Positions 11,625 to 57,791 are shown, numbered from the stretch's first letter. The stretch is 64,000 nt of DNA from Candidatus Parcubacteria bacterium (GCA_023444045.1 JAEZRQ010000002.1:76102-140101), one strand, 5' to 3'. The notes: generated by a model not told the origin, from the letters alone. Program-made: numbers and translations.

Positions 11625-12961
11625 AAAAAATATTAATCTCTTTTATTTTTGTTATATCAGTATTCTTTGTTTTTAGCGCTACTCAAGCTTCAGCTGCCTG
11701 CTATTGGGTAAAAAAAGAAACATATTATGATACAGTAAAAAGAGAAACCGTTATTAAGGGTGGTTGCGCTGCCATACAAACAGAAAAAAGTGATAGCAGC
11801 TGCTCTGGTACCAAACCTAAATATGACTCATCTGATGGGATTGCTCGGGTGGCTGTCTGTTGTTGCGATAAGAGTGAGGCAAACACTGCAACCGCAAAAG
11901 ATACTTGCTCTTGGCAGATATCGAAATCATATTATGATACTGCCTCTAGAGAAACTGTTAAAACTACTTGCAGTACCGGCACAGCTCTTTACGGTGATAA
12001 CAATTGTTCTACCCCAAAACCAGAAAACAAAACTTCTAATGGAATTGCGGAGACACCTATTTGCTGCTGTAAGGCTGGTGTTACCGCCAAAAGCCAAACA
12101 AAAGCTGCTCCTAGATTTATAATGCCAGAGTTTCAAATAAAAATTCCTGGCCTTAATAAACTAAGTGATGTAAGTTGTGCTAATGGAGTCTGTAAGATAC
12201 CGTGGATATCAGAATATACTTTTGCCGTGTATGAATACGGCCTATCTATTGCGGGAATTTTAGGTGTTTTAATCCTGATGGCGGCCGGTCTTCTCTGGAT
12301 TGTTTCAGGCGGCGATCAAAACAAAATAACCAAAGCTAAAAAAATGATTTTTGGCAGCATAGTCGGTTTAATTATACTTGTCGGAGCAAATTTACTTCTA
12401 ACAAATATAAATCCCGACTTAGCTGAGTCAAAAACTATTAATATTGGTTATGTAGAAAGAATTGAATTAGAGAAAGATGTTGATATTATGGTGGTTGGTG
12501 GTGTAACTGGTTATTTAGCTGGTTGTAAAGCTGCTAAAAATGGGGATTTATCAGTTTGCGAAGCTTATGGAAACGCTGAGCCAGGAGGATTGATTGATGC
12601 CCCAGGGAAAAAAGGCACCATCAGGATTAAAGCGGATGTCTACCAAAAATATCAAGCGGTCATGGAATGCGTTCGTCAAAAAAATAATGGTCAAGATTTG
12701 TTTGTAATCAACGAAGCGTTTCGTTCGGCTGCTGAGCAAATCCGCTTAAAGGAACAAGGATACCCCGCCGCAACTCCATGCTGCTCAAATCACAGCTCTG
12801 GACAAGCAATGGATATCCACCGCAAAGATGGTAATAAAATGACTTGGGAATATAATATATCTTCTGGCTTAAAAGAATGCATGAATGCTCAAGGTCTATA
12901 TGCAAACCTTAACAAAGCCCCTTATGATGAACCTTGGCATTGGTCACCAACCGGAAAATAA
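11621..12961 (+). CDS. Cys-rich repeat + T4SS-pilin-like core + C-terminal M15 (VanY/LAS-type) peptidase fusion protein
   Basis: Signal peptide, then two internal Cys-rich repeats (CYWVKKETYYDTVKRETV…VCCC and CSWQISKSYYDTASRETV…ICCC). The helix pair is paralogous to the one in 9669..10748. The C-terminus has SNHSSGQAMDI and EPWHW, which look like metal ligands of D-Ala-D-Ala carboxypeptidase-type M15 enzymes. ATGA overlap with porB. Confidence 0.65.
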   Translation: MKKILISFIFVISVFFVFSATQASAACYWVKKETYYDTVKRETVIKGGCAAIQTEKSDSSCSGTKPKYDSSDGIARVAVCCCDKSEANTATAKDTCSWQISKSYYDTASRETVKTTCSTGTALYGDNNCSTPKPENKTSNGIAETPICCCKAGVTAKSQTKAAPRFIMPEFQIKIPGLNKLSDVSCANGVCKIPWISEYTFAVYEYGLSIAGILGVLILMAAGLLWIVSGGDQNKITKAKKMIFGSIVGLIILVGANLLLTNINPDLAESKTINIGYVERIELEKDVDIMVVGGVTGYLAGCKAAKNGDLSVCEAYGNAEPGGLIDAPGKKGTIRIKADVYQKYQAVMECVRQKNNGQDLFVINEAFRSAAEQIRLKEQGYPAATPCCSNHSSGQAMDIHRKDGNKMTWEYNISSGLKECMNAQGLYANLNKAPYDEPWHWSPTGK

Positions 12962-32430: not shown

Positions 32431-32529
32431 TTTTATAGGTTTTCTAAATATGCTGATATGTTTATTATATCAGTTTTTCTTCTCTGAGACGACTAATTAT
32501 TAGAATTAATTAATCAGCTCGGAAAGGAA

Positions 32530-32553
32530 GCGGACAGTTGAACGACTGTCCGC
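32530..32553 (-). repeat. fourth copy of the GUUCAA-loop hairpin (no ribozyme attached), followed by UUCCUUUCC
   Basis: Minus strand reads GCGGACAG-UCGUUCAA-CUGUCCGC then UUCCUUUCC. The loop and trailing motif match the three cassette hairpins, but the stem sequence is completely different. Confidence 0.6.
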
Positions 32554-32575: not shown

Positions 32576-32956
32576 CTACTCTTTACTCTTTTTTTCTCTT
32601 TCTATGCGCCTTCGTTCGCAGAAGCGGCAGTTACCCTTGTGAACCATAGCCACGCCCCTGTCAACTTTAGTTACGATATATTCGCAGCCATCTAAATAGA
32701 TAACCTTGTATGATTCTGGGTTAAATCCATACCTATCAATATAATAAGGATATGTGATAGAATCACTTACTGCGACCATAGAATCACTTACTGCGACCAT
32801 AGAATCACTTACTACTTCTATAGTATTTATCTCCGCAGAATCATTCTTGTCTGACAAATATACCACCTTATACGACGGCACATCCGAACATCCCACACAA
32901 AAAAATGCTAAAATAAAAATTATATTTTTCATTTTTTTAATTTTTAAATTCTCCAA
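32576..32956 (-). CDS. small lipoprotein with VSDSMVA tandem repeat (probable true start ATG at 32932)
   Basis: MKNIIFILAFFCVGC is a lipobox-like signal. The track start at 32956 is a TTG. The basic C-terminus contains CRFC. Confidence 0.6.
   Translation of the reverse strand: MENLKIKKMKNIIFILAFFCVGCSDVPSYKVVYLSDKNDSAEINTIEVVSDSMVAVSDSMVAVSDSITYPYYIDRYGFNPESYKVIYLDGCEYIVTKVDRGVAMVHKGNCRFCERRRIEREKKSKE
32757..32815. repeat. 21-bp tandem repeat x ~2.8 inside the lipoprotein gene
   Basis: atagaatcacttactgcgacc occurs twice, followed by the partial copy atagaatcacttactac. It encodes the in-frame VSDSMVA repeats. Confidence 0.9.
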
Positions 32957-33063
32957 AGCACTATTGCCTGGATTATTCTGAAACTAATTAATTTAATAAG
33001 ATTCAAAATAATCCAAACAATAATTTGAGAATAAAAAATGAAAAGATTTTTTTTAAAGAACAT

Positions 33064-33116
33064 TTCCTTTTCGTCGTTTCCGACTCATCAGCCAAGATAC
33101 ACATCTTGGGAAGGAA
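33064..33116 (-). ncRNA. type III hammerhead self-cleaving ribozyme (copy A)
   Basis: Minus strand reads UUCCU-UC^CCAAGAU-GUGU-AUCUUGG-CUGAUGA-GUCG-GAAA-CGAC-GAAA-AGGAA. The full catalytic core is present (CUGAUGA, GAA, A15.1-U16.1, C17). Stems I and II are closed and stem III is open. Confidence 0.9.
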
Positions 33117-33222
33117 GAGCAGATTTGAACTATCTGCTCTCTATTAAACTATTTTATCCATCCGATTTCGCTCTTAGGATTTAAGGCGCTCAATTTAATG
33201 TCAAGAGGGGACAAAATAATAT
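33117..33222 (-). repeat. intergenic cassette A: conserved ~80-nt module + GUUCAA-loop hairpin
   Basis: The module starts immediately after the stop codon (TAG|ATATTATTTTGTCCCCTCTTGACATTAAATTGAGCGCCTTAAATCCTAAGAGCGAAATCGGATGGATAAAATA). The hairpin GAGCAGAU-AGUUCAA-AUCUGCUC follows. The module is near-identical to cassette B. Confidence 0.8.
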
Positions 33223-33366
33223 CTATTTTTTTCTTACTACCAAGGCAACAAAAATAATTGACACCACGGCTAATGGAATAACACTAAAATTGTTATTATA
33301 GCCCATGAGATAGTTTAAGCCCCACATGCAAGCAAGACCTAAGATAATAATTATTATTTTTTTCAT
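33223..33366 (-). CDS. 47-aa hydrophobic peptide (below ORF-track cutoff)
   Basis: MKKIIIIILGLACMWGLNYLMGYNNNFSVIPLAVVSIIFVALVVRKK*. The conserved cassette begins directly after its stop codon, exactly as it does after the 529-aa gene. Confidence 0.5.
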   Translation of the reverse strand: MKKIIIIILGLACMWGLNYLMGYNNNFSVIPLAVVSIIFVALVVRKK

Positions 33367-33412
33367 TTTATTTGCCTACTCTATTACAGGTTTTCGGCTT
33401 CCCCTGATTTTT

Positions 33413-36400
33413 TTATACTAGTCCGGCTCTGCGCAGAGCGTCGGCTAAGAGGCCATCGCTTGAAGTTTCGCTAGACTCACCATCCACCTCATCTTTACCT
33501 TCTTCATATTGGTAATTTCCAAAATGATAATCATATACATAATATTTGACATCATTTGGGTCGGCCCCTACGAAGAAATCTAAGCCACCAAGCTCCGTCA
33601 GGTGGTCGTACACTCGCGCCCGTCCGCAGTGCCCGACAATATGTTCGTCGAGTTTTTCGGCGGGAAGATTTTCTACATTCTTGACAAATTCAAGTGTGCG
33701 ATTTAAATCTCCACCGAAAGCGTTTAAAAGATAGCGAGGTAACTTGTTTCTTTTTTCAAGCTCCTCTCTTTCTTTTTGACGCACTTTGAACAATTGACTC
33801 AGCTCCGCAATCATTTCTTCTATCTCACGACAGATATTATTAACGTCCGTAAAATCACCTTTTTGCAAAGCTGATTTTACTTCCGAAAGCTGATTGCGAA
33901 TTTCGCGGATTTTCTCGGAAATAAGTTCAGGCTCAACCTCAGTTAAAGTTTTTTCAAAACTTTCTTCGGCATTAATAATTAAAGCATTAGCTTTCTCATA
34001 TTCAACACGAAGATTGTTTTTTATTTCCTCAGCTTTAGTTTCCATCCCTCCTACTCGCTCGGAAGAATTTTCAAGAGTTAACCCCTCTATCATTTCCATT
34101 CTAAGCATTTCAAGGTGATTTTTCAGCGCATTTCCCAGCTCGGTCAGCCCCCAACAATTACGAAAGATTTCTTCATTGGGGATCGTCAAAGCTTCAGAAA
34201 CTTGATTGTTAAAATTACTAACCAAATTTCTTTTCGCTCTTTCAATTTGCTCCTGACGAGCTTTTTCTATTCTTGCTCGGTGTTCACCCAAGGTTTGAGT
34301 ATAACCATCGCAAGAAAGTTTTAGCTCGCGACCACTGGGGAGCGAAACACTCTCCGGTTTGGTTTCAAAAATAAAATTTTCTGAGACCTCAATCTTGGCA
34401 ATAAAATCACCATAATAATGAGTATATACAACAGAAAATTCTTTATCTTCAATCTCTATAACTAAAGGATTTTTTTCCTCAATAGAAGCTATCTCCTCTG
34501 GTGAAATTAATTGAGATAAATTTATTCTTAAATCATCTTGACTTATCTCTTTCTCAAGGAGATTTTCAAGTTGAGTAAAACCAAGTACCTTCCAAGGCTC
34601 CAATACTTTGCAGTATTGTTCGCCAATAACTTCGCTATTGTTTTTTGATTCAATAGCTCCGCCACTACGCGCCCAATATGCATCATATTGGTTCATAATT
34701 TCTGTGTTATCATGATAGAGATTTCTTACAACTTCCGAAGAAGCGTATCTACTCATCATATTGTTCACAAAAATTTTGAAAGCCTCAGCGCTCCACGGAG
34801 CAGTCTTTGCCACCCGAGCAATTTCCATATCGTTAAAAACCGTAATATGGTCTTCAACAACACAATTTTGCTCATCATCCCAATGAAGGTTTTCAACCTT
34901 CTCTGAGACCAGATGTGGCGCCACTTCAGCTAACCAGGCTGGGTCCACTTTTGATGCCATACTTACCAAATTAAGAGTCATAGACCCTCTTCTGGTAGCA
35001 ATCTGCAGATCAAAAGGGATTCCTACGATCCAATCAGGAGTAGATCTCTCTACCACTGAACTAGACCCCAACTCACGGTCAGTGTCATCTCCGTTGCGAT
35101 ATGACCCATACTGGTTTTTATATAGATGGTCTACCATACCGGCACAAACAGCTTTCAGGATGTTTTCCCTTTTACCATTTGTACCAAAACGGAAATGTCC
35201 TTTCAAGGCCTCAGATAAAAGATGTCGAATTTCTTTGGCGCGATAAAAATCACGCAAAGCAATCCCTTTTTCTTTCATCTCGACTTCACTCATTGTGCGA
35301 GATATTTCCCACACTTTGAGCTGAGCCATGATGTCAGACTCTCTTTCATCCGGCACCATACCACGCCAATCTGGGCGGTCGGGTCGATTGCGACTCGGCG
35401 GAGGAACAGTAATGCCGTCCATCTCCATAATCGCAGCAACAGTCAAGACGTCACTTACGACGCCAAGACGATCAGCTTCAATTAACATCCGACCATATTT
35501 CACCGAAACCGGAAGCTTGTTTACCAAGCGACCAATTCCAGTTACCTTGCCTTCGCTAGTCATACAGCCCAAACCAATTAAGGTCTTGCGAGCATCACTG
35601 ATGTCTGATTTAGCGGGCTGATGGAAAAATTCCATCATCTCCATATCAAACCCAGCGATTGCCAGACGCAAAACTGTTTGGTCCAAGCGTTTACGCAGAA
35701 TCTCGGCCACCGGGAAGTCGGGCCTGTTTGAACTCGAGCAGTGATCAATATAGATTCCTGCTTTTGTTCTTCCTGCGCGCCCCTTTCTTTGCTTCGAATC
35801 GGCCAGTGAAATTGGTTTCAGGTATAAACCCTCAACTCCATCAACTAGCTCAATCCGACGTTCAAGTCCGGAATCCACGACGGCATCAATGTCATCAATT
35901 GTCACACTGGTTTGCGCAACATTTGTCGACACTACAACCTTCGGCTTACCATAGTGCGCAAAGCACTTGGCTTGCTCATCTGGTGTGAGTTGTCCGTGAA
36001 GTGGCAGGACTACCGCCGAAACATTCAACTGCGCCAGGCGGTTAATAGTCTCATTGATTTCCTGCTGTCCGGGTTGGAAAACCAGAACATTGTGACCTTC
36101 AGCAACTAAAGTTGCAACATCGGACTCAATGTTATAACCGGCCGTTTTTTCCTCAACCGTGAATGTTCGCCCTGGGACAGAAATGATTGGTGCATTATTA
36201 AAAAATGCACTCAACTTTTCCGACTCCAAAGTCGCACTCATGAGAACTACTTTCATAGTTGAGCCAGTGGCAATTTGAGATTTCACCCAGGCCACCAGAA
36301 CTTCCATGTTTTCGTTCCACTCATGCACCTCATCGAGGACGAGAATGCCTCGATTCTGACCCATAAGCTCACGCACAAGTGCGAGGCCATCGGTGCAAAA

Positions 36401-36688
36401 TAGACAACGGGTTGCGGAACTATCCGCTCGTTCTACCGCGGTGCGGTAGCCGATGGTAACCCCAATTTTTTCGCCCATCTCATAAGCCACGCGAGCAGCA
36501 ACAGAACGGGCGGCGAGTCGGCGGGGTTGAGTCACGACTAAGTCATAACCTGCCTCCAGCAAGTACTGCGGTACTTGCGTGGATTTCCCCGCTCCAGTTT
36601 CGGCCGTAATGACCGTTACTGGATTTTCTTTGATGCTCTTCAGAATCTCATTCCGAAACGCATCAATGGGTAATATTGTTTTTTTCAT
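33413..36688 (-). CDS. DEAH-box (HrpA/HrpB-like, SF2) ATP-dependent RNA helicase with long coiled-coil C-terminal extension
   Basis: Motifs I ETGAGKST, Ia TQPRRLAARSVA, II DEVH, III SAT, V TNVAQTSVTI and VI QRKGRAGR. About 450 aa of K/E-rich C-terminal region follow. Confidence 0.85.
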   Translation of the reverse strand: MKKTILPIDAFRNEILKSIKENPVTVITAETGAGKSTQVPQYLLEAGYDLVVTQPRRLAARSVAARVAYEMGEKIGVTIGYRTAVERADSSATRCLFCTDGLALVRELMGQNRGILVLDEVHEWNENMEVLVAWVKSQIATGSTMKVVLMSATLESEKLSAFFNNAPIISVPGRTFTVEEKTAGYNIESDVATLVAEGHNVLVFQPGQQEINETINRLAQLNVSAVVLPLHGQLTPDEQAKCFAHYGKPKVVVSTNVAQTSVTIDDIDAVVDSGLERRIELVDGVEGLYLKPISLADSKQRKGRAGRTKAGIYIDHCSSSNRPDFPVAEILRKRLDQTVLRLAIAGFDMEMMEFFHQPAKSDISDARKTLIGLGCMTSEGKVTGIGRLVNKLPVSVKYGRMLIEADRLGVVSDVLTVAAIMEMDGITVPPPSRNRPDRPDWRGMVPDERESDIMAQLKVWEISRTMSEVEMKEKGIALRDFYRAKEIRHLLSEALKGHFRFGTNGKRENILKAVCAGMVDHLYKNQYGSYRNGDDTDRELGSSSVVERSTPDWIVGIPFDLQIATRRGSMTLNLVSMASKVDPAWLAEVAPHLVSEKVENLHWDDEQNCVVEDHITVFNDMEIARVAKTAPWSAEAFKIFVNNMMSRYASSEVVRNLYHDNTEIMNQYDAYWARSGGAIESKNNSEVIGEQYCKVLEPWKVLGFTQLENLLEKEISQDDLRINLSQLISPEEIASIEEKNPLVIEIEDKEFSVVYTHYYGDFIAKIEVSENFIFETKPESVSLPSGRELKLSCDGYTQTLGEHRARIEKARQEQIERAKRNLVSNFNNQVSEALTIPNEEIFRNCWGLTELGNALKNHLEMLRMEMIEGLTLENSSERVGGMETKAEEIKNNLRVEYEKANALIINAEESFEKTLTEVEPELISEKIREIRNQLSEVKSALQKGDFTDVNNICREIEEMIAELSQLFKVRQKEREELEKRNKLPRYLLNAFGGDLNRTLEFVKNVENLPAEKLDEHIVGHCGRARVYDHLTELGGLDFFVGADPNDVKYYVYDYHFGNYQYEEGKDEVDGESSETSSDGLLADALRRAGLV

Positions 36689-36794
36689 TTTTTTATTTTT
36701 TTGGTTTTATCAACTACTCAGTAATTTGAGTAACTAATAGAGCCAAAAAAATAGGTAAAATGATAAACCTACTAACTATTTATTTTTTAACGTT

Positions 36795-36847
36795 CTCCTT
36801 TTCGTCGTTTCCGACTCATCAGCTAGGATGCACATCCTAGGAAGGAA
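36795..36847 (-). ncRNA. type III hammerhead self-cleaving ribozyme (copy B)
   Basis: UUCCU-UC^CUAGGAU-GUGC-AUCCUAG-CUGAUGA-GUCG-GAAA-CGAC-GAAA-AGGAG. Stem I has two compensatory base-pair changes relative to copy A. Confidence 0.9.
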
Positions 36848-36951
36848 GAGCAAGTTTGAACGACTTGCTCTTTTTTGAACTTATTTTATCCATCCGATTT
36901 CGCTCTTAGGATTTAAAGCGCTCAATTTAATGTCGAGAGGGGACAAAATAT
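36848..36951 (-). repeat. intergenic cassette B: conserved ~80-nt module + GUUCAA-loop hairpin
   Basis: TAA|ATATTTTGTCCCCTCTCGACATTAAATTGAGCGCTTTAAATCCTAAGAGCGAAATCGGATGGATAAAATA, then the hairpin GAGCAAGU-CGUUCAA-ACUUGCUC (compensatory relative to A). Confidence 0.8.
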
Positions 36952-38541
36952 TTACGCCTGGAGTTTATCGTAGGCTCCAGCAAACCCGCGGCCAGCGTCA
37001 CCGTAAGCCTGATATAGGCCATTGGCAGCTGCCCAGCCGTTGGGATACGTCGGGCGACCGTCAACCATCGCAACTTCACCGAGAAATTCGGCAACAACCG
37101 GTTTAGGTCCAGACAGGTTTACCTTATCTGGGAAACGTTTGTCGCCTTTGGCAAGATATGCGGTTCCAGTCATCACCCCCGCCTCAACGAGAAAAGGAAT
37201 AGGACCTAAATCGCGAACATCAGCCACCTGAATGTCGCCCAATGTTACGGTTCTGTCCGGATTTTTCAGCAGCTTCACAGCCGCTTCAATCTCTGTCATT
37301 GCTTCAGCCTCCGATGAAACGTTTTCGCGTTTCATGATTTCCGGAAGACGCATAGCGAGCACTTCAGCTGCAGTAACACCAGGACACTGTCCGGCGTAAG
37401 CAGCGGCCAAGCAATGGTCGGCGGCGGCGATTACCCTGTCTTCTTGCGTTGGTTCAATTCTCAAAAATTTCAGGAGTTGACCCAAACTGGAAGCTTCCAG
37501 GTATTGAGCTGGTGGCAAACCGAATCCAGCGTTACCAGGATTATGATGGTCGCACTGAGCGACAATCGTAAGTCCAGCCGCGGCAGACGGAGCACATTCA
37601 AATATGATGCACTCCAGGCAATCCGTAGATTCACCTGCTTCGCTATCTATCTGATATCCGTCCGCCCGGTAAGCCGTCATGGGGTTACATTTTTCACCAC
37701 CCATGGTTGCGGTAGCTAAAAGTAAACCGTGCTGAATCGCAATTTTTCTGGCCCGTTGCTCCTCGATGTCGGGAGCACCAAAAATGATTACTCGCGGACA
37801 AAATGTTTCGTGGATGAAATTTTCCAAAGCGGTTTGGTCTGCGTATCCACCCCAGAAGGCATTAGTTTTAGTCGTAAGTCCTCCAGTCCAACCGCCAGGA
37901 AATTTGGCATCAATAGCCTTCACCACAGCAGGTGTGCCATAATAATTACTTTCACCATCTCCTGATAAAATCAAAAGATTTTGGCGAGTGCCCTGGGTTT
38001 CAAAAACTCTGTCAGCAATCGGCGCCGTTTTAGAATGTGCACAACGCACAACAACTAATCCGTTCGTGAATTTTTCCTGAGCCGCGACTGCCCGCTCGGC
38101 TTCAATCTCCTGCTCTGAAGTAATCCCCTGGCAAGAGCGGTCGAAAGCGCGCACTTGACGTATTTCTTCGATGGAAGCACCAGAGGCAACAAGCCCCGGG
38201 ATATACCCTTCGTCGTTAATGGCAATAAGAATATCTTCGCGGGTCGGTTTTACACCGATTAATTCAAGCACCTGCAGAATACTCTGCGGATTTCCGCTAA
38301 AATCACCATGATGATCAATTATCAAAGCATTAGTTGGCAGCTCAATATCAACCACCAATTCAATGAGAACAGGGATTTTACCAGCAGTTGTAACAGCTTT
38401 AATTGCGTCACTATAAGCTGAAGCTTTCGCACCCCAACCTAAATTGCCATTTATAACCTCGGCGCTAACCTCGGTTAAAATTTTTTCAATTTGCATCATT
38501 TCAGCATCTTTGCCTCCTAAAAAAAATACGAACTTTTTCAT
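36952..38541 (-). CDS. hypothetical two-domain protein with duplicated DHH-type motif (possible phosphoesterase)
   Basis: 529 aa and very GC-rich. IIDHHGD is at aa 74-80 and CDHHNPG at aa 330-336, each preceded by a similar beta-strand-like start (FVFFLGGKDAEM and VIIFGAPDIEEQ). Family not recognised. Confidence 0.6.
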   Translation of the reverse strand: MKKFVFFLGGKDAEMMQIEKILTEVSAEVINGNLGWGAKASAYSDAIKAVTTAGKIPVLIELVVDIELPTNALIIDHHGDFSGNPQSILQVLELIGVKPTREDILIAINDEGYIPGLVASGASIEEIRQVRAFDRSCQGITSEQEIEAERAVAAQEKFTNGLVVVRCAHSKTAPIADRVFETQGTRQNLLILSGDGESNYYGTPAVVKAIDAKFPGGWTGGLTTKTNAFWGGYADQTALENFIHETFCPRVIIFGAPDIEEQRARKIAIQHGLLLATATMGGEKCNPMTAYRADGYQIDSEAGESTDCLECIIFECAPSAAAGLTIVAQCDHHNPGNAGFGLPPAQYLEASSLGQLLKFLRIEPTQEDRVIAAADHCLAAAYAGQCPGVTAAEVLAMRLPEIMKRENVSSEAEAMTEIEAAVKLLKNPDRTVTLGDIQVADVRDLGPIPFLVEAGVMTGTAYLAKGDKRFPDKVNLSGPKPVVAEFLGEVAMVDGRPTYPNGWAAANGLYQAYGDAGRGFAGAYDKLQA

Positions 38542-38659
38542 TTTTTTATTTTTTTACCTCCTAACACATGTTCGGATTATTCTAAAACCCAAAATAATAA
38601 TTGAGATTTAAAATAATCCAAACAAATGCTTGATAAAAAAATATTTTATTTAAATGAAC

Positions 38660-38712
38660 TTCCTTTTCGTCGTTTCCGACTCATCAGCCAAGACACACAT
38701 CTTGGGAAGGAA
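38660..38712 (-). ncRNA. type III hammerhead self-cleaving ribozyme (copy C)
   Basis: UUCCU-UC^CCAAGAU-GUGU-GUCUUGG-CUGAUGA-GUCG-GAAA-CGAC-GAAA-AGGAA. The core is intact, with one U-G wobble in stem I. Confidence 0.9.
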
Positions 38713-38735
38713 GAGCAGATTTGAACTATCTGCTC
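38713..38735 (-). repeat. GUUCAA-loop hairpin (copy C)
   Basis: GAGCAGAU-AGUUCAA-AUCUGCUC sits directly 5' of hammerhead C. Here the upstream ~200 nt differ from the A/B module. Confidence 0.75.
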
Positions 38736-39185: not shown

Positions 39186-39940
39186 AAATCTTACTATAAA
39201 AATTTCTAGAAGCTATAGCTGATTTTTTAAAATTTAAGGAACAACTCTTCCGAAGAAGTTTCTAAGTCCCAAACTTGTTCAAGGTTTAGAGGCTTAGCCG
39301 ATCTCTTCGTAAGAAAACGGTTGAAGAAACGATTGTTCTTGGAACTTACTCGTCGCTTACATTACGCAAGCTAATTGGGCCACCAAATACTTAATCAAAG
39401 TCTTTCGTGAGTTCCGGTTTGCAACGGACCTAACTACTTAACTAATTTCTTCTACCCACTTTTGTGGAGCAAACTAACAGAGCTGTAAATCTTAGGACAT
39501 GGACTCTCTCCGTCCACCTCAATCTCCTAAAATTTTCAATCACCTGTTTGGTGCTGCTTATTCCCTAAGCAACTTGGGAAGATTATGTACTAATCTTTTT
39601 TATGAATAGAATAGGCAATCATGAAGGGGAAAATTGCTTTATTAACTGAGTTAAACTAGGCATGGGGCGTCTAGTCATCTTAATCTCAATGTTTTTTGGC
39701 AGTTTATATATTGAGCTTCAACTTAAGTCTTGTGGCTAAAGCAGAGCTAAACCATCTTTATTCCTCTTCATAACTGCCTATTCTAAAAAAAGATAATAAA
39801 TGGAAACGGGTTAAACCTCATATAAGGAGATAAGCCGCTTTCACCTATTATCTTTATAGTTGAATGCTTTGACTTAATATCTGGCTCTCTCCTTCCATTT
39901 ATTAATTGTTTCTTTTGTTTGAATGTACTACCATCTTAAC
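39186..39940 (-). ncRNA. ~750-nt ORF-free, hairpin-rich leader / candidate large non-coding RNA of the island operon
   Basis: No ORF of 60 aa or more occurs in any frame. It lies downstream of a near-consensus minus-strand promoter. Many strong local helices are visible, for example an 11-bp AAAUUUUAGGA/UCCUAAGAUUU stem, an 11-bp AAUAAAUGGAA/UUCCAUUUAUU stem, and UUCG- and GNRA-like loops. The strand is inferred from the promoter and operon context. Confidence 0.4.
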
Positions 39941-39947
39941 TGTCTAA

Positions 39948-39976
39948 AGTATAGCATTATTTTATACTATTGTCAA
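39948..39976 (-). promoter_or_regulatory. near-consensus sigma70-type promoter driving the island operon
   Basis: Minus strand reads TTGACA (39976..39971), a 17-nt spacer, then TATACT (39953..39948). The -35 is embedded in the palindrome TATTGtCAATA. Confidence 0.55.
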
Positions 39977-57407: not shown

Positions 57408-57730
57408 GCCTCGGTAGCTCAGTGGTAGAGCAAAGGACTGAATTTCGGTCCGTCCTGTAGAAACACAGGAATGAAAATCGGGTGAATTCGGAGAAACCTT
57501 AATTATTAAAATTTTTAATAAAAGGCAATTCCGAGCCAAGCCTTAACTGGGATAAAATGTTAAGGAAGGTGTAGAGACTAGCGGGTGAGCCCAACAATAA
57601 CCCCGCCGCGAGCGCCCGACTCCGTCTTTGTAGAAATATAAACGGAGATGATATAGTCCGATCCTTAAGGAAACTTAAGAAAATACTAAGGAAAATCCTT
57701 GTGTCGTCAGTTCGATTCTGACCCGGGGCA
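57408..57730 (+). tRNA. tRNA-Phe (GAA) interrupted by a group I intron in the anticodon loop
   Basis: Exon 1 is 57408..57439 and exon 2 is 57691..57730. Joined, they give a 72-nt cloverleaf with acceptor GCCUCGG/CCGGGGC, anticodon loop CU|GAAAA and T-loop UUCGAUU. Confidence 0.85.
57440..57690 (+). ncRNA. group I self-splicing intron (251 nt)
   Basis: P1 forms between the exon end GGACU and the internal guide GGUCC, with a U.G wobble at the splice site. The intron ends in G. There are P7-like strands AGACUA…AUAUAGUC and a terminal CUUAAG-GAAA-CUUAAG hairpin. The core resembles bacterial tRNA group I introns. Confidence 0.8.
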
Positions 57731-57791
57731 CAAAAGTAGACAAAAAAATGAACTGGTAATATAATTATACTGTTACCGATGGTTCAATTTA

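Follow-up and report, generated by a model that had tools for sequence, protein, structure and literature searches.

Type III hammerhead ribozymes between the genes of a chromosomal operon in a Candidatus Parcubacteria bacterium

Three complete type III hammerhead ribozymes were found on the minus strand of a chromosomal operon of Candidatus Parcubacteria bacterium (GCA_023444045.1), an ultra-small, uncultured member of the Patescibacteria (CPR), all of them intergenic and in the same orientation as the genes. They lie in a 64,000-nucleotide stretch (JAEZRQ010000002.1:76102-140101), which is termed the window and whose first letter is position 1. Their sequence, their predicted folds and the covariation among relatives mark all three as genuine type III hammerheads for which self-cleavage is predicted, and the favoured reading, with a probability of roughly 0.6, is that they would cut the transcript co-transcriptionally between its cistrons and thereby split it into separate mRNAs. 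The novelty resides in the lineage and the setting of a well-known ribozyme and not in a new kind of RNA, since gene-flanking hammerhead clusters of prophages are already known (PMC3088659).

Sequence, Fold and Position of the Three Hammerheads

The three elements, named after the cassettes in which they reside, are as follows.

33064..33116, minus strand: hammerhead A, type III (sequence, fold, Rfam, subclass model R1)
36795..36847, minus strand: hammerhead B, type III (sequence, fold, R1; partial Rfam match)
38660..38712, minus strand: hammerhead C, type III (sequence, fold, Rfam RF00008, R1)

Read in the minus-strand direction (33116..33064, 36847..36795 and 38712..38660), each copy carries CUGAUGA, GAA, the A15.1-U16.1 pair, C17 and the G10.1-C11.1 pair without any deviation, so that all core positions of the type III hammerhead (C3 U4 G5 A6 N7 G8 A9, G12 A13 A14 and the H17 cleavage site) are occupied as required, and both sequence and fold display the type III topology, in which stem III is open and loops close stems I and II. 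Copy A reads UUCCUU-C-[CCAAGAU GUGU AUCUUGG]-CUGAUGA-GUCG GAAA CGAC-GAA-A-AGGAA, while copy B is distinguished by the loop GUGC, the stem I strands CUAGGAU/AUCCUAG and the 3' strand AAGGAG, and copy C by a stem I that closes with a U-G pair. The 5' strand of stem III, UUCCUU-C, is the same in all three copies, and the 3' strands are nearly so. An earlier, sequence-only reading of this DNA had described three complete cores, two double compensatory changes in stem I between copies A and B, a stem I wobble in copy C and a terminal G-U pair in stem III of copy B, all of which were borne out by the minus-strand sequence. Its placement of C17 opposite plus-strand positions 33110 (A), 36841 (B) and 38706 (C) was likewise correct, and the predicted cut sites are 33110/33109, 36841/36840 and 38706/38705, respectively.

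By chance, none of the three hammerheads is expected. The 23-mer CUGAUGAGUCGGAAACGACGAAA occurs exactly three times, on the minus strand only, and 100 dinucleotide shuffles yielded no match to it with three mismatches tolerated. Minimum free energy folding of 81-nt segments returned the three-helix hammerhead together with an abutting hairpin (hairpin 1) for every copy, the z-scores ranging from -3.0 to -3.8.

With the Rfam model RF00008 (Hammerhead_3), copy C scored 42.2 bits (E=1e-6), copy A 39.1 bits (E=7.5e-6) and copy B 18.6 bits as a partial match, all three below the gathering score of 48.5 bits, which is a curated operational cutoff and not a biochemical property; no hammerhead was therefore reported in the window at Rfam gathering thresholds, and the matches appeared in E-value mode only. 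The sequence-only reading had named sub-cutoff covariance-model scores of all three copies as one ground for refutation, and formally these scores fall on the refuting side. They are nevertheless not regarded as a refutation, since the E-values of copies C and A are small, two sequences collected from loci of the candidate phyla radiation (CPR) pass the cutoff (L116 with 50.5 and L037 with 49.6 bits), and the subclass model R1 gives 79.1 (A), 78.2 (C) and 73.8 bits (B).

The Operon and Its Genes

The cassettes probably lie on one long minus-strand transcript that starts at the promoter listed below together with the two largest genes concerned.

39948..39976, minus strand: likely operon promoter, TTGACA-17-TATACT with extended TG (11/12 consensus matches)
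36952..38541, minus strand: 529-aa protein whose N-terminal half is an NrN-like DHH phosphodiesterase (PADLOC, PDB)
33413..36688, minus strand: 1091-aa DEAH-box helicase of the HrpA/HrpB type (TIGR01967, Pfam)

The 529-aa protein matches the PADLOC profiles DHH_CorA (5.9e-47) and C3a116 (4e-69) as well as NrN in the PDB (9lq9, 4.5e-26), and a test for internal duplication gave weak similarity (E=0.009). The helicase matches TIGR01967 at 6.3e-94, below the equivalog cutoff, and the Pfam families DEAD, Helicase_C and HA2_C. Hammerhead C is placed between an 81-aa Zn-ribbon-like ORF and the 529-aa gene, and hammerhead B between the latter and the helicase gene. Hammerhead A is flanked by a lipoprotein-like ORF on one side and, on the other, by a 47-aa membrane ORF that follows the helicase gene; the helicase gene and copy A are thus not adjacent, being separated by a DUF805b RNA motif and the membrane ORF. 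The operon is chromosomal, with ftsK, a mur ligase gene, rpoB, ruvC and yebC as neighbours. The search for a phage context returned no PHROG match except a generic helicase (1.4e-5), the cassette DNA had no match among 50,697 phage records, and the surroundings of the copies showed neither terminal inverted repeats nor target duplications, and neither a reverse transcriptase nor an integrase.

Architecture of the Cassettes

Each window cassette follows a defined order, namely an 8-bp terminator-like hairpin abutting stem III, the ribozyme, a boxA-like motif (GUUCUUUAAA) and a 5'-UTR hairpin. The parts around the ribozymes are listed below.

38713..38735, minus strand: hairpin 1 of cassette C, GAGCAGAU-AGUUCAA-AUCUGCUC, abutting stem III (fold, covariation)
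36848..36870, minus strand: hairpin 1 of cassette B, GAGCAAGU-CGUUCAA-ACUUGCUC (fold, covariation)
33117..33139, minus strand: hairpin 1 of cassette A, with the same sequence as that of cassette C (fold, covariation)
33050..33061, minus strand: boxA-like motif GUUCUUUAAAAA, 2 nt 3' of hammerhead A (putative function)
38648..38659, minus strand: weaker boxA-like motif GUUCAUUUAAAU, directly 3' of hammerhead C (putative function)
32969..33015, minus strand: long 5'-UTR hairpin UGGAUUAUUUUGAA...UUCAGAAUAAUCCA, 3' of hammerhead A and ahead of the start codon that follows (repeat family D7)
32477..32553, minus strand: hammerhead-less cassette before ftsK (repeat family D4; z = -6.2)
33150..33218, minus strand: 69-nt element directly after a stop codon, upstream of hairpin 1 of cassette A (repeat comparison)
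36882..36950, minus strand: other copy of the 69-nt element, placed 5' of hairpin 1 in cassette B (repeat comparison)

Hairpin 1 possesses an 8-bp stem in all three cassettes and is followed by UUCCUU, with four U in six positions. Across seven related cassettes, 96% of its alignment cells are paired and three of the eight pairs change on both sides. The terminator consensus scan made a sense-strand call on the hammerhead-less copy (32553..32530) and none on the sense sides of A, B and C; it called hairpins B and C on their antisense sides, the plus-strand call at B spanning 36842-36876. With AAAAAA before it and UUCCUU after it, hairpin 1 of cassette B therefore resembles a bidirectional terminator. 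Mimicry of a tRNA T-arm, suggested by the GUUCAA loop, was considered for hairpin 1 and rejected because the closing pairs are unfit.

The U-rich motif (GUUCUUUAAA/GUUCUUUGAAA) may be of the boxA type, by its resemblance to the boxA of E. coli and Bacillus; the boxA of E. coli rrn operons is UGCUCUUUAACAA. The 12-mer is not enriched over the window as a whole (6 found, 5.2 expected), so that the reading is carried solely by its position after the hammerheads. A counterpart of the long 5'-UTR hairpin follows hammerhead C at about 38573-38622. The cassette in the ftsK gap is built of a hairpin 1 (GCGGACAG-UCGUUCAA-CUGUCCGC) and, immediately adjoining it, a second hairpin that is long and imperfect (UUCCUUUCC-GAG...CUC-AGAGAAGAA).

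The two copies of the 69-nt element, which cassette C does not have, are 97% identical and contain TTGACA or TCGACA followed, about 15-17 nt on, by an A/T-rich hexamer. The element is conserved between genomes with only about 50% protein identity and is kept in the related locus L130, where CCC/GGG takes the place of CUC/GAG. Possible identities are an internal promoter or operator, or else an RNA motif. Additional matches to a 12-nt probe for this element in L006, L007 and L011 were dismissed as chance.

A Hammerhead Subclass of CPR Genomes

The window copies belong to a large hammerhead subclass which, among the matches listed, is represented almost only in genomes of Saccharibacteria and other CPR bacteria, although the order of that listing could bias the counts per taxon. 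Its hallmarks are a stem I of 7 bp with xGAU-GYGU-AUCx at its closed end and, as stem II, GUCG-GAAA-CGAC. An alignment of 79 distinct subclass sequences, collected by a pattern search that fixed the core and limited variation in stem II, has 97.5% of its cells paired, as against 23-47% when the partners are slid, and changes on both sides occur at 12 of the 17 pairs; RNAalifold, as an independent prediction, arrives at the same junction. The 11 single-stranded core nucleotides are invariant in 79/79 aligned sequences, which is partly a consequence of their being fixed in the search pattern. Conservation exceeds 90% at positions U16, G17 and U20 of loop 1 and its closing pair, and loop 2 reads GAAA. 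A tertiary contact between loops 1 and 2 is needed for hammerhead activity at physiological Mg2+, and the conservation of loop 1 would be the pattern expected of such a contact.

An abutting hairpin at stem III accompanies 43/59 subclass members, compared with 25% of control positions, and a UCUUU motif follows the hammerhead in 24/59, compared with 3.6%; the 59 members are not phylogenetically independent, and the control rate for the hairpin is high. Many subclass hammerheads are located tens of nucleotides (under about 70) 5' of a start codon, while the gene context that a simple ORF finder delivered around some 30 other members was too noisy in genomes of higher GC content. The Saccharibacteria members of the subclass are multi-copy and nearly invariant over many genomes, and cultured Saccharibacteria (Nanosynbacter TM7-008, TM7-053, TM7-076 and TM7-087) carry it as well.

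Related CPR and viral loci contain 3 to 10 co-oriented hammerheads within a few kb, the same subclass being clustered on viral contigs; locus L018 harbors ten hammerheads in 4 kb, with structured RNAs of about 230 nt between them. Stem III is shared within clusters of other genomes too. The sequence-only reading had called three co-oriented hammerheads in one operon uncommon, which was overstated given these loci and the gene-flanking clusters described in 2011 (PMC3088659). The literature was also searched for a link between Saccharibacteria, Patescibacteria or CPR and hammerheads or other self-cleaving ribozymes, and nothing relevant came up.

The Same Operon in Related Genomes

Three other genomes, namely JBAZKQ01 (L048/L125/L133), L113 and L130, likewise bear hammerheads in gaps of this operon; their stems I to III differ from those of the window and stem II is also longer in L130; over seven same-operon cassettes, 95% of cells are paired. 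The L130 locus was found via its protein and not through the search pattern, and its hammerhead core is unchanged. These same-operon relatives with different stems, together with the 79 distinct subclass sequences, support the earlier judgement in that they make chance or non-functional matches very unlikely.

The ribozyme is not present at every gap. Gaps without a hammerhead were found in L127/L137, L132 and L134-L136, and a plain long hairpin takes its place in gaps 2 and 3 of L130, which carry the same element as the ftsK gap, and in that window gap itself. Versions devoid of a hammerhead at equivalent gaps share hairpin 1 and the flanks with the cassette, and a search for other known ribozyme classes in the hammerhead-less gaps of L127, L129, L130 and L132 gave none at E<=0.5. 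From these relatives it follows that catalysis at a given gap is dispensable or can be replaced by a protein RNase. A protein profile search yielded 13 metagenome loci, with hammerheads in one of them, which belongs to the same genome as L048.

Similarity is greater among the copies of a single genome than between same-operon copies of different genomes: window copies A and C are 89% identical, and the two L113 copies are nearly so. Recent duplication or gene conversion accordingly fits this likeness as well as selection does.

Proposed Mechanism and Alternative Explanations

In the proposed intercistronic cleavage, the ribozyme would fold as RNA polymerase passes the cassette and would cut 3' of C17. 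The upstream mRNA would then end in the stable hairpin 1 and a 7-nt UUCCUUC tail bearing a 2',3'-cyclic phosphate, a product that would resemble that of an intrinsic terminator and be expected to resist 3' exonucleases, while the downstream mRNA would carry a 5'-OH at its start, followed by stems I and II of the ribozyme in folded form. Separate mRNAs would result for the Zn-ribbon protein, the NrN-like phosphodiesterase, the HrpA-like helicase, the membrane protein and the lipoprotein, so that each cistron would have a stability of its own and a fixed 5' UTR, with no halt in transcription. The motif GUUCUUUAAA is a possible boxA-type Nus-factor site that might guard the long untranslated spacer from premature termination. 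The motif, its fold and covariation, the same-operon hammerheads of relatives and the statistical association with the hairpin and the U-rich motif are observed, and from there we infer cleavage in vivo, the fates of the products and the boxA function.

The hammerheads could alternatively serve mainly to trim variable 5' leaders in the manner of a natural RiboJ-like insulator, the 69-nt element upstream of cassettes A and B being an internal promoter or operator and transcripts from internal promoters acquiring the same defined 5' UTR as those from the operon promoter. The promoter-like hexamers of this element, which is conserved across genomes, and the short distance of many subclass hammerheads to a start codon speak for this rather unlikely explanation, but the -10-like hexamer is poor, the consensus scan made no promoter call there, the conservation of the 69 nt reaches well past the hexamers, cassette C lacks the element altogether, and the upstream hairpin 1 would be left unexplained. 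That the hairpin-hammerhead unit is instead a mobile or gene-converting repeat (MITE-like, retrozyme-like or phage-derived), with the ribozyme serving its own spread and the location being incidental, is considered quite improbable. Although the closeness of copies within a genome, the multi-copy and nearly invariant Saccharibacteria members and the clusters on viral contigs would suit such an element, same-operon copies with compensatory stem changes occur in three other genomes, none of the sequence signs of mobility looked for was seen nearby, and hairpin 1 and its flanks are common to hammerhead-less cassettes at equivalent gaps.

Two further explanations are both regarded as very unlikely. 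Circularisation would have the segments from C to B (1865 nt) and from B to A (3731 nt) released and their ends rejoined by the reverse reaction or by an RtcB-type ligase; because the stem III strands are the same or nearly so, the 3' end of a segment could re-pair with its own 5' ribozyme body, and the stem III shared within clusters elsewhere accords with this. Duplication explains the shared stems equally well, however, no ligase gene was identified in the operon, and circular or spliced products were sought for bacterial multi-hammerhead transcripts with none found (PMC3088659). The elements might also act as structure without catalysis, as a terminator, attenuator or protein-binding platform that does not cleave at physiological Mg2+, for which the plain hairpins at equivalent positions in relatives and the sub-threshold Rfam scores could be cited; against it stand the single-stranded nucleotides of the core, which make no contribution to the stability of the helices and yet do not vary in the 79 sequences, where the pattern partly fixed them, nor in L130, located through its protein.

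Wider Meaning

A broader picture may be drawn tentatively, with the odds clearly against it at present: a modular punctuation of operons throughout CPR/Patescibacteria, composed of a terminator-like hairpin, a hammerhead (or a long hairpin cut by an RNase) and a boxA-type motif. Long operons would then be read through and their RNA cut co-transcriptionally into terminator-like mRNAs, each stabilised on its own. The ribozyme would belong to everyday chromosomal gene expression in a major bacterial radiation and would not be a feature of mobile elements, and dense arrays such as L018 would represent the same system freeing non-coding RNAs. Should the subclass be concentrated in CPR, it would constitute a lineage-typical expression feature of very small genomes, and the Rfam Hammerhead_3 threshold would miss many of its members.

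Most known bacterial hammerheads reside in prophages, where a function for the host is hard to tell from phage biology. In the present operon, chromosomal synteny, a fixed architecture and hairpin-bearing relatives as natural controls make a role in processing and stability directly testable, and, as cultured Nanosynbacter strains carry the subclass, end-specific RNA-seq could settle whether cutting occurs in vivo.

Comparison with Known Systems

The window elements share with type III hammerheads of RF00008 the catalytic core, the open stem III and the capped stems I and II; they differ in belonging to a chromosomal CPR operon, not to a viroid or satellite, retroelement or prophage, and in scoring below the gathering cutoff. 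Their loop 1 (GAUGUGU) and GNRA loop 2 presumably resemble those of the satellite tobacco ringspot virus (sTRSV) hammerhead, a likeness that we take as a lead only. The RiboJ insulator unites the sTRSV hammerhead with a hairpin, cutting off the upstream RNA and leaving a fixed, structured 5'-OH leader whatever the preceding sequence. Cleavage of the upstream RNA is likewise predicted here, whereas the window cassette is natural and its extra hairpin lies 5' of the ribozyme, on the upstream product, and not 3' of it.

Sites for antitermination by boxA and Nus factors are found in rrn operons, phage lambda nut sites and CRISPR leaders (PMC7665894, PMC5725501). The cassette motif (GUUCUUUAAA; UGCUCUUUACAUU in L132) is like them in being short, rich in U and single-stranded, and in lying on long untranslated RNA beside a hairpin, but here it stands between protein-coding cistrons, right after a ribozyme.

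Co-oriented hammerheads that flank single genes or short gene blocks in prophages have been proposed to process transcripts into gene-length mRNAs, and multi-hammerhead bacterial transcripts cleave in vitro (Perreault 2011, PMC3088659). The window likewise has several hammerheads in one transcription unit, flanking the 529-aa gene and the helicase block; it differs from the prophage clusters in the lack of a phage context, in the same-operon hammerheads of related species, and in the constant cassette around the ribozyme, with its hairpin against stem III and its boxA-like motif, of which the available text of that paper gives no description.

The outcome proposed here equals that of processing by protein RNases, and the hammerhead-less cassettes, in which hairpin 1 adjoins a hairpin of at least 20 bp, have the appearance of substrates for RNase III. 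Intercistronic sites for RNase III and RNase E confer differential stability on the cistrons of one transcript; in the hammerhead cassettes, the RNA itself would make the cut.

Sequence and fold of the three hammerheads

Three stretches of the minus strand had been proposed, from the sequence alone, to be complete hammerheads, and re-reading confirmed the full layout in each:

33116..33064, minus strand: hammerhead A, from the sequence
36847..36795, minus strand: hammerhead B, from the sequence
38712..38660, minus strand: hammerhead C, from the sequence

Each begins with the stem III 5' strand UUCCUU, followed by the cleavage nucleotide C17 and a 7-bp stem I with a 4-nt loop, while the 3' half is composed of CUGAUGA, stem II GUCG-GAAA-CGAC, GAA, and A15.1 with the stem III 3' strand. 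The stem changes described earlier were likewise found: stem I is CCAAGAU/AUCUUGG in A and CUAGGAU/AUCCUAG in B, amounting to two double compensatory changes, the closing pair of stem I in C is U-G, and the terminal stem III pair in B is G-U. Folding of 81-nt segments of A, B, and C gave the hammerhead junction together with an upstream hairpin (z-scores -3.0 to -3.8). No fourth hammerhead was found in the 64-kb window by a covariance model built from the CPR-type subclass.

At its curated thresholds, Rfam did not report the window hammerheads. With the Hammerhead_3 model (RF00008) in E-value mode, C reached 42.2 bits (E=1e-6) and A 39.1 bits (E=7.5e-6), and B aligned only in part (18.6 bits). 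The sequence-only reading had named a sub-cutoff score of all three copies as a refutation, and A, B, and C do all fall below the gathering score of 48.5; because this formally goes against the claim, independent evidence was sought. Two sequences from the collected CPR loci exceed the Rfam cutoff (L116:5240-5294, 50.5 bits; L037:5872-5926, 49.6 bits), and the subclass model scores A, C, and B at 79.1, 78.2, and 73.8 bits, respectively. Judged from these scores and from the covariation described below, the Rfam shortfall of the window copies is a matter of threshold, and A, B, and C are very probably selected hammerhead motifs of type III.

Covariation and distribution of the subclass

An exact-pattern scan for CUGAUGAGNCGGAAACGNCGAAA over one genome per GTDB species returned at least 119 stretches, and the pattern was matched in three viral contigs as well. 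In a gap-free alignment of 79 distinct 57-nt subclass sequences, in which the search pattern limits variation of stem II, standard pairs occupy 97.5% of the pair cells; shifting the 3' partners by 1-3 columns lowers this to 23-47%. Both-sided changes occur in 12 of the 17 pairs. RNAalifold produced the same three-way junction with no structure supplied. The contention that the window copies are not chance matches was upheld, as the 23-mer common to A, B, and C (three occurrences) was absent from 100 shuffles with up to 3 mismatches permitted, and the covariation score of the alignment was reached by none of 500 shuffles. The hammerhead of the related locus L130, recovered through a protein homologue rather than the pattern, has the same core with a longer, different stem II and a different stem I. 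Three positions of loop 1 and the closing pair are more than 90% conserved across the 79 sequences, which would fit a contact between loop 1 and the GAAA loop 2.

Among the genome matches listed, whose taxon proportions could be biased by collection order, 114 of 119 carry a CPR label (Saccharibacteria, Nanosynbacter, Saccharimonas, Parcubacteria, Paceibacterota, Liptonbacteria, Nomurabacteria, Sungiibacteriota, Taylorbacteria, or "Patescibacteria group"), the other five being two unclassified "bacterium" MAGs and Micavibrio, Atopobium, and Gammaproteobacteria MAG contigs. The last three labels (L031, L090, and L113, CAZCQW010000002.1) stand on loci with a CPR-type hammerhead and are probably binning or labelling errors; that of L113 is doubtful because this locus has the operon of the window. 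Two forms were distinguished, namely a multi-copy, nearly invariant form in Saccharibacteria (stem III GUUCGCU, stem I CAUAGAU) and a form with diverse stems in the other lineages, which includes the window copies. A search of the accessible literature found no paper tying hammerheads or self-cleaving ribozymes to these CPR lineages.

Clusters are common: L018 has ten co-oriented copies within ~4 kb, L116 and the viral contig L005 have four each, and L017 and L060 have three each. The L018 array (L018:2340-6700; JANLIU010000041.1, a Ca. Parcubacteria MAG), which is placed around a 592-aa DinG/Rad3-like helicase gene and has no Rfam match, has spacers of about 77-82 or 216-251 nt, most of them devoid of plausible ORFs, and the long spacers share three conserved hairpins within variable sequence; its appearance suggests a series of ~230-nt structured RNAs that ribozymes would release. 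At L097:5985-6036 (minus strand), in a Saccharibacteria MAG, one of the two hammerheads of the locus ends a transcription unit and faces a convergent gene, where it would be a 3'-end-forming rather than an intercistronic element.

The operon and its relatives

The operon sits in a 291-kb contig assembled from a metagenome, between housekeeping genes: rpoB, a Mur ligase gene, and ftsK lie on one side, ruvC and yebC on the opposite side. Read along the minus strand, the elements are promoter, leader, the Zn-ribbon-like ORF (81 aa), hammerhead C, the 529-aa protein, hammerhead B, helicase, DUF805b motif, a 47-aa membrane ORF, hammerhead A, the lipoprotein-like ORF, a pair of hairpins that lacks a hammerhead, and ftsK; a TrmB-family regulator is divergently transcribed.

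39976..39948, minus strand: likely strong promoter, from a sequence scan
39186-39950, minus strand: non-coding leader of ~750 nt from promoter to first ORF, kept in L130, L113, L125, and L132
36952-38541, minus strand: 529-aa protein, N-terminal half similar to NrN-type DHH phosphodiesterases (PADLOC DHH_CorA 5.9e-47; PDB 9lq9 4.5e-26)
between hammerheads B and A, minus strand: HrpA/HrpB-like DEAH helicase, 1091 aa (TIGR01967 6.3e-94, below the equivalog cutoff)
33373-33407, minus strand: DUF805b RNA motif (RF02914, 49.7 bits), directly after the helicase stop codon
33223-33366, minus strand: 47-aa hydrophobic membrane ORF, just downstream of the DUF805b motif
32757-32826, plus strand: 21-nt tandem repeat, ~3.3 copies, inside the lipoprotein-like ORF

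The leader, which has no Rfam match, contains 3-4 hairpins exposing GGAGAGAG (e.g., AUGGAAGGAGAGAGCCAU and GGACGGAGAGAGUCC) and perhaps acts as a regulatory or protein-titrating RNA. Between its two halves, the 529-aa protein shows only faint similarity (E=0.009); in JBAZKQ01 it is split into 256-aa NrN-like and 299-aa genes that flank a hammerhead, and conservation is much higher in the C-terminal half (84%) than in the NrN-like one. A second DUF805b copy lies at L129:2309-2341 in a related locus, and the lipoprotein-like ORF differs in length between same-species assemblies (111 aa in L001, 118 aa in L003). Elsewhere in the window, at 57408-57731 (plus strand), a tRNA-Phe(GAA) missed by the default tRNA scan adjoins tRNA-Ile and tRNA-Met genes and carries a group I intron of 251 nt (RF00028, 96 bits) in its anticodon loop.

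Relatives share the gene order of a large GNAT protein, divergent TrmB, a ~1 kb non-coding leader, a small protein, one or more NrN-like proteins, and a helicase. Hammerheads occupy gaps of this operon in JBAZKQ01 (two; L048, L125, and L133 are pieces of one contig), L113 (two), and L130 (one, divergent), and none was found in the operon of L127/L137, L132, or L134-L136.

The cassette around each ribozyme

An 8-bp hairpin with the loop xGUUCAA (hairpin 1) is predicted to abut the 5' side of each window ribozyme with zero spacer; across seven cassettes from four genomes, both-sided changes occur in 3 of its 8 pairs and 96% of the cells are paired. The U-rich stem III 5' strand that follows is placed like a terminator U-tract, and in cassette B an A-tract lies 5' of hairpin 1, which leads to a terminator call on the antisense strand. 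Downstream, GUUCUUUAAAAA begins 2 nt past hammerhead A and GUUCAUUUAAAU comes after hammerhead C, each with a long 5'-UTR hairpin further on. Of 59 subclass members, 43 have a stable hairpin ending no more than 3 nt from stem III, against 25% of random positions in the same loci (binomial p ~3e-14), and 24 have a UCUUU-type motif in the next ~16 nt downstream, against 3.6% of control positions (p ~1e-19), both p-values being overstated because many of the members are paralogues. We take the U-rich motif to resemble the boxA of rRNA operons (E. coli UGCUCUUUAACAA); UGCUCUUUACAUU stands at the equivalent position of L132. BoxA-dependent Nus complexes protect long untranslated RNAs, CRISPR arrays included (PMC7665894), and the assignment of the motif as a putative boxA is tentative.

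The 5' UTRs after the hammerheads also carry UUUUCAUUUUUU (e.g., window 33025-33045, minus strand), complementary to AAAAAAUGAAAA around the operon start codons (32925-32945, 36680-36700, and 38535-38555), which possibly reflects a start-codon-sequestering pairing or a mere effect of A/T-rich composition.

In L130, L132, and the window gap before ftsK, a long imperfect hairpin replaces the ribozyme beside hairpin 1 (z-scores -4.6 to -9.8), followed in L132 by the boxA-like motif; these hammerhead-less elements match no known ribozyme family. Since the same hairpin 1 abuts either one, the ribozyme looks like one of two interchangeable "cuttable" modules. This interchange, as read from the loci compared, supports a processing role and shows that RNA catalysis is dispensable at any single gap.

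Proposed mechanism and alternatives

Cleavage in vivo is likely, and would probably occur co-transcriptionally on the 3' side of C17. Hairpin 1 and UUCCUUC with a 2',3'-cyclic phosphate would form the 3' end of the upstream RNA, making it terminator-like and resistant to exonucleases. On the downstream RNA, a 5'-OH and the folded body of the ribozyme would come first, and behind them the U-rich motif, the long hairpin, and, at a distance of 106-131 nt, the start codon. Cleavage would thereby uncouple the stabilities of the cistrons without halting transcription. To this intercistronic-processing model as a whole, a probability of about 0.6 is assigned.

Trimming of leaders after internal promoters is rather unlikely; it touches on a 69-nt element found upstream of two cassettes, a candidate RNA motif or internal promoter/operator:

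33150-33218, minus strand: 69-nt element upstream of cassette A, directly after a stop codon
36882-36950, minus strand: 69-nt element upstream of cassette B, directly after a stop codon

The two copies are 97% identical, and the element is kept at L130:8068-8140 and 12455-12525, where the proteins are ~50% identical, with a CUC/GAG to CCC/GGG double change. That the hammerheads are a selfish repeat is improbable, and no prophage signal was seen around the window operon; circularisation of the RNA and a conserved structure without catalysis are both given very little weight beside intercistronic processing.

Comparison with known systems

The hammerhead ribozyme class has long been known. Gene-flanking hammerhead clusters occur in prophages of Clostridium scindens, Azorhizobium caulinodans, and Agrobacterium tumefaciens, and multi-ribozyme transcripts are reported to cleave in vitro (PMC3088659). 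In contrast with the clusters described there, the window copies are chromosomal and lie in an operon syntenic across species. What is new here is the lineage carrying the hammerheads, this chromosomal setting, and the fixed cassette of hairpin, ribozyme, and U-rich motif together with its hammerhead-less counterpart.
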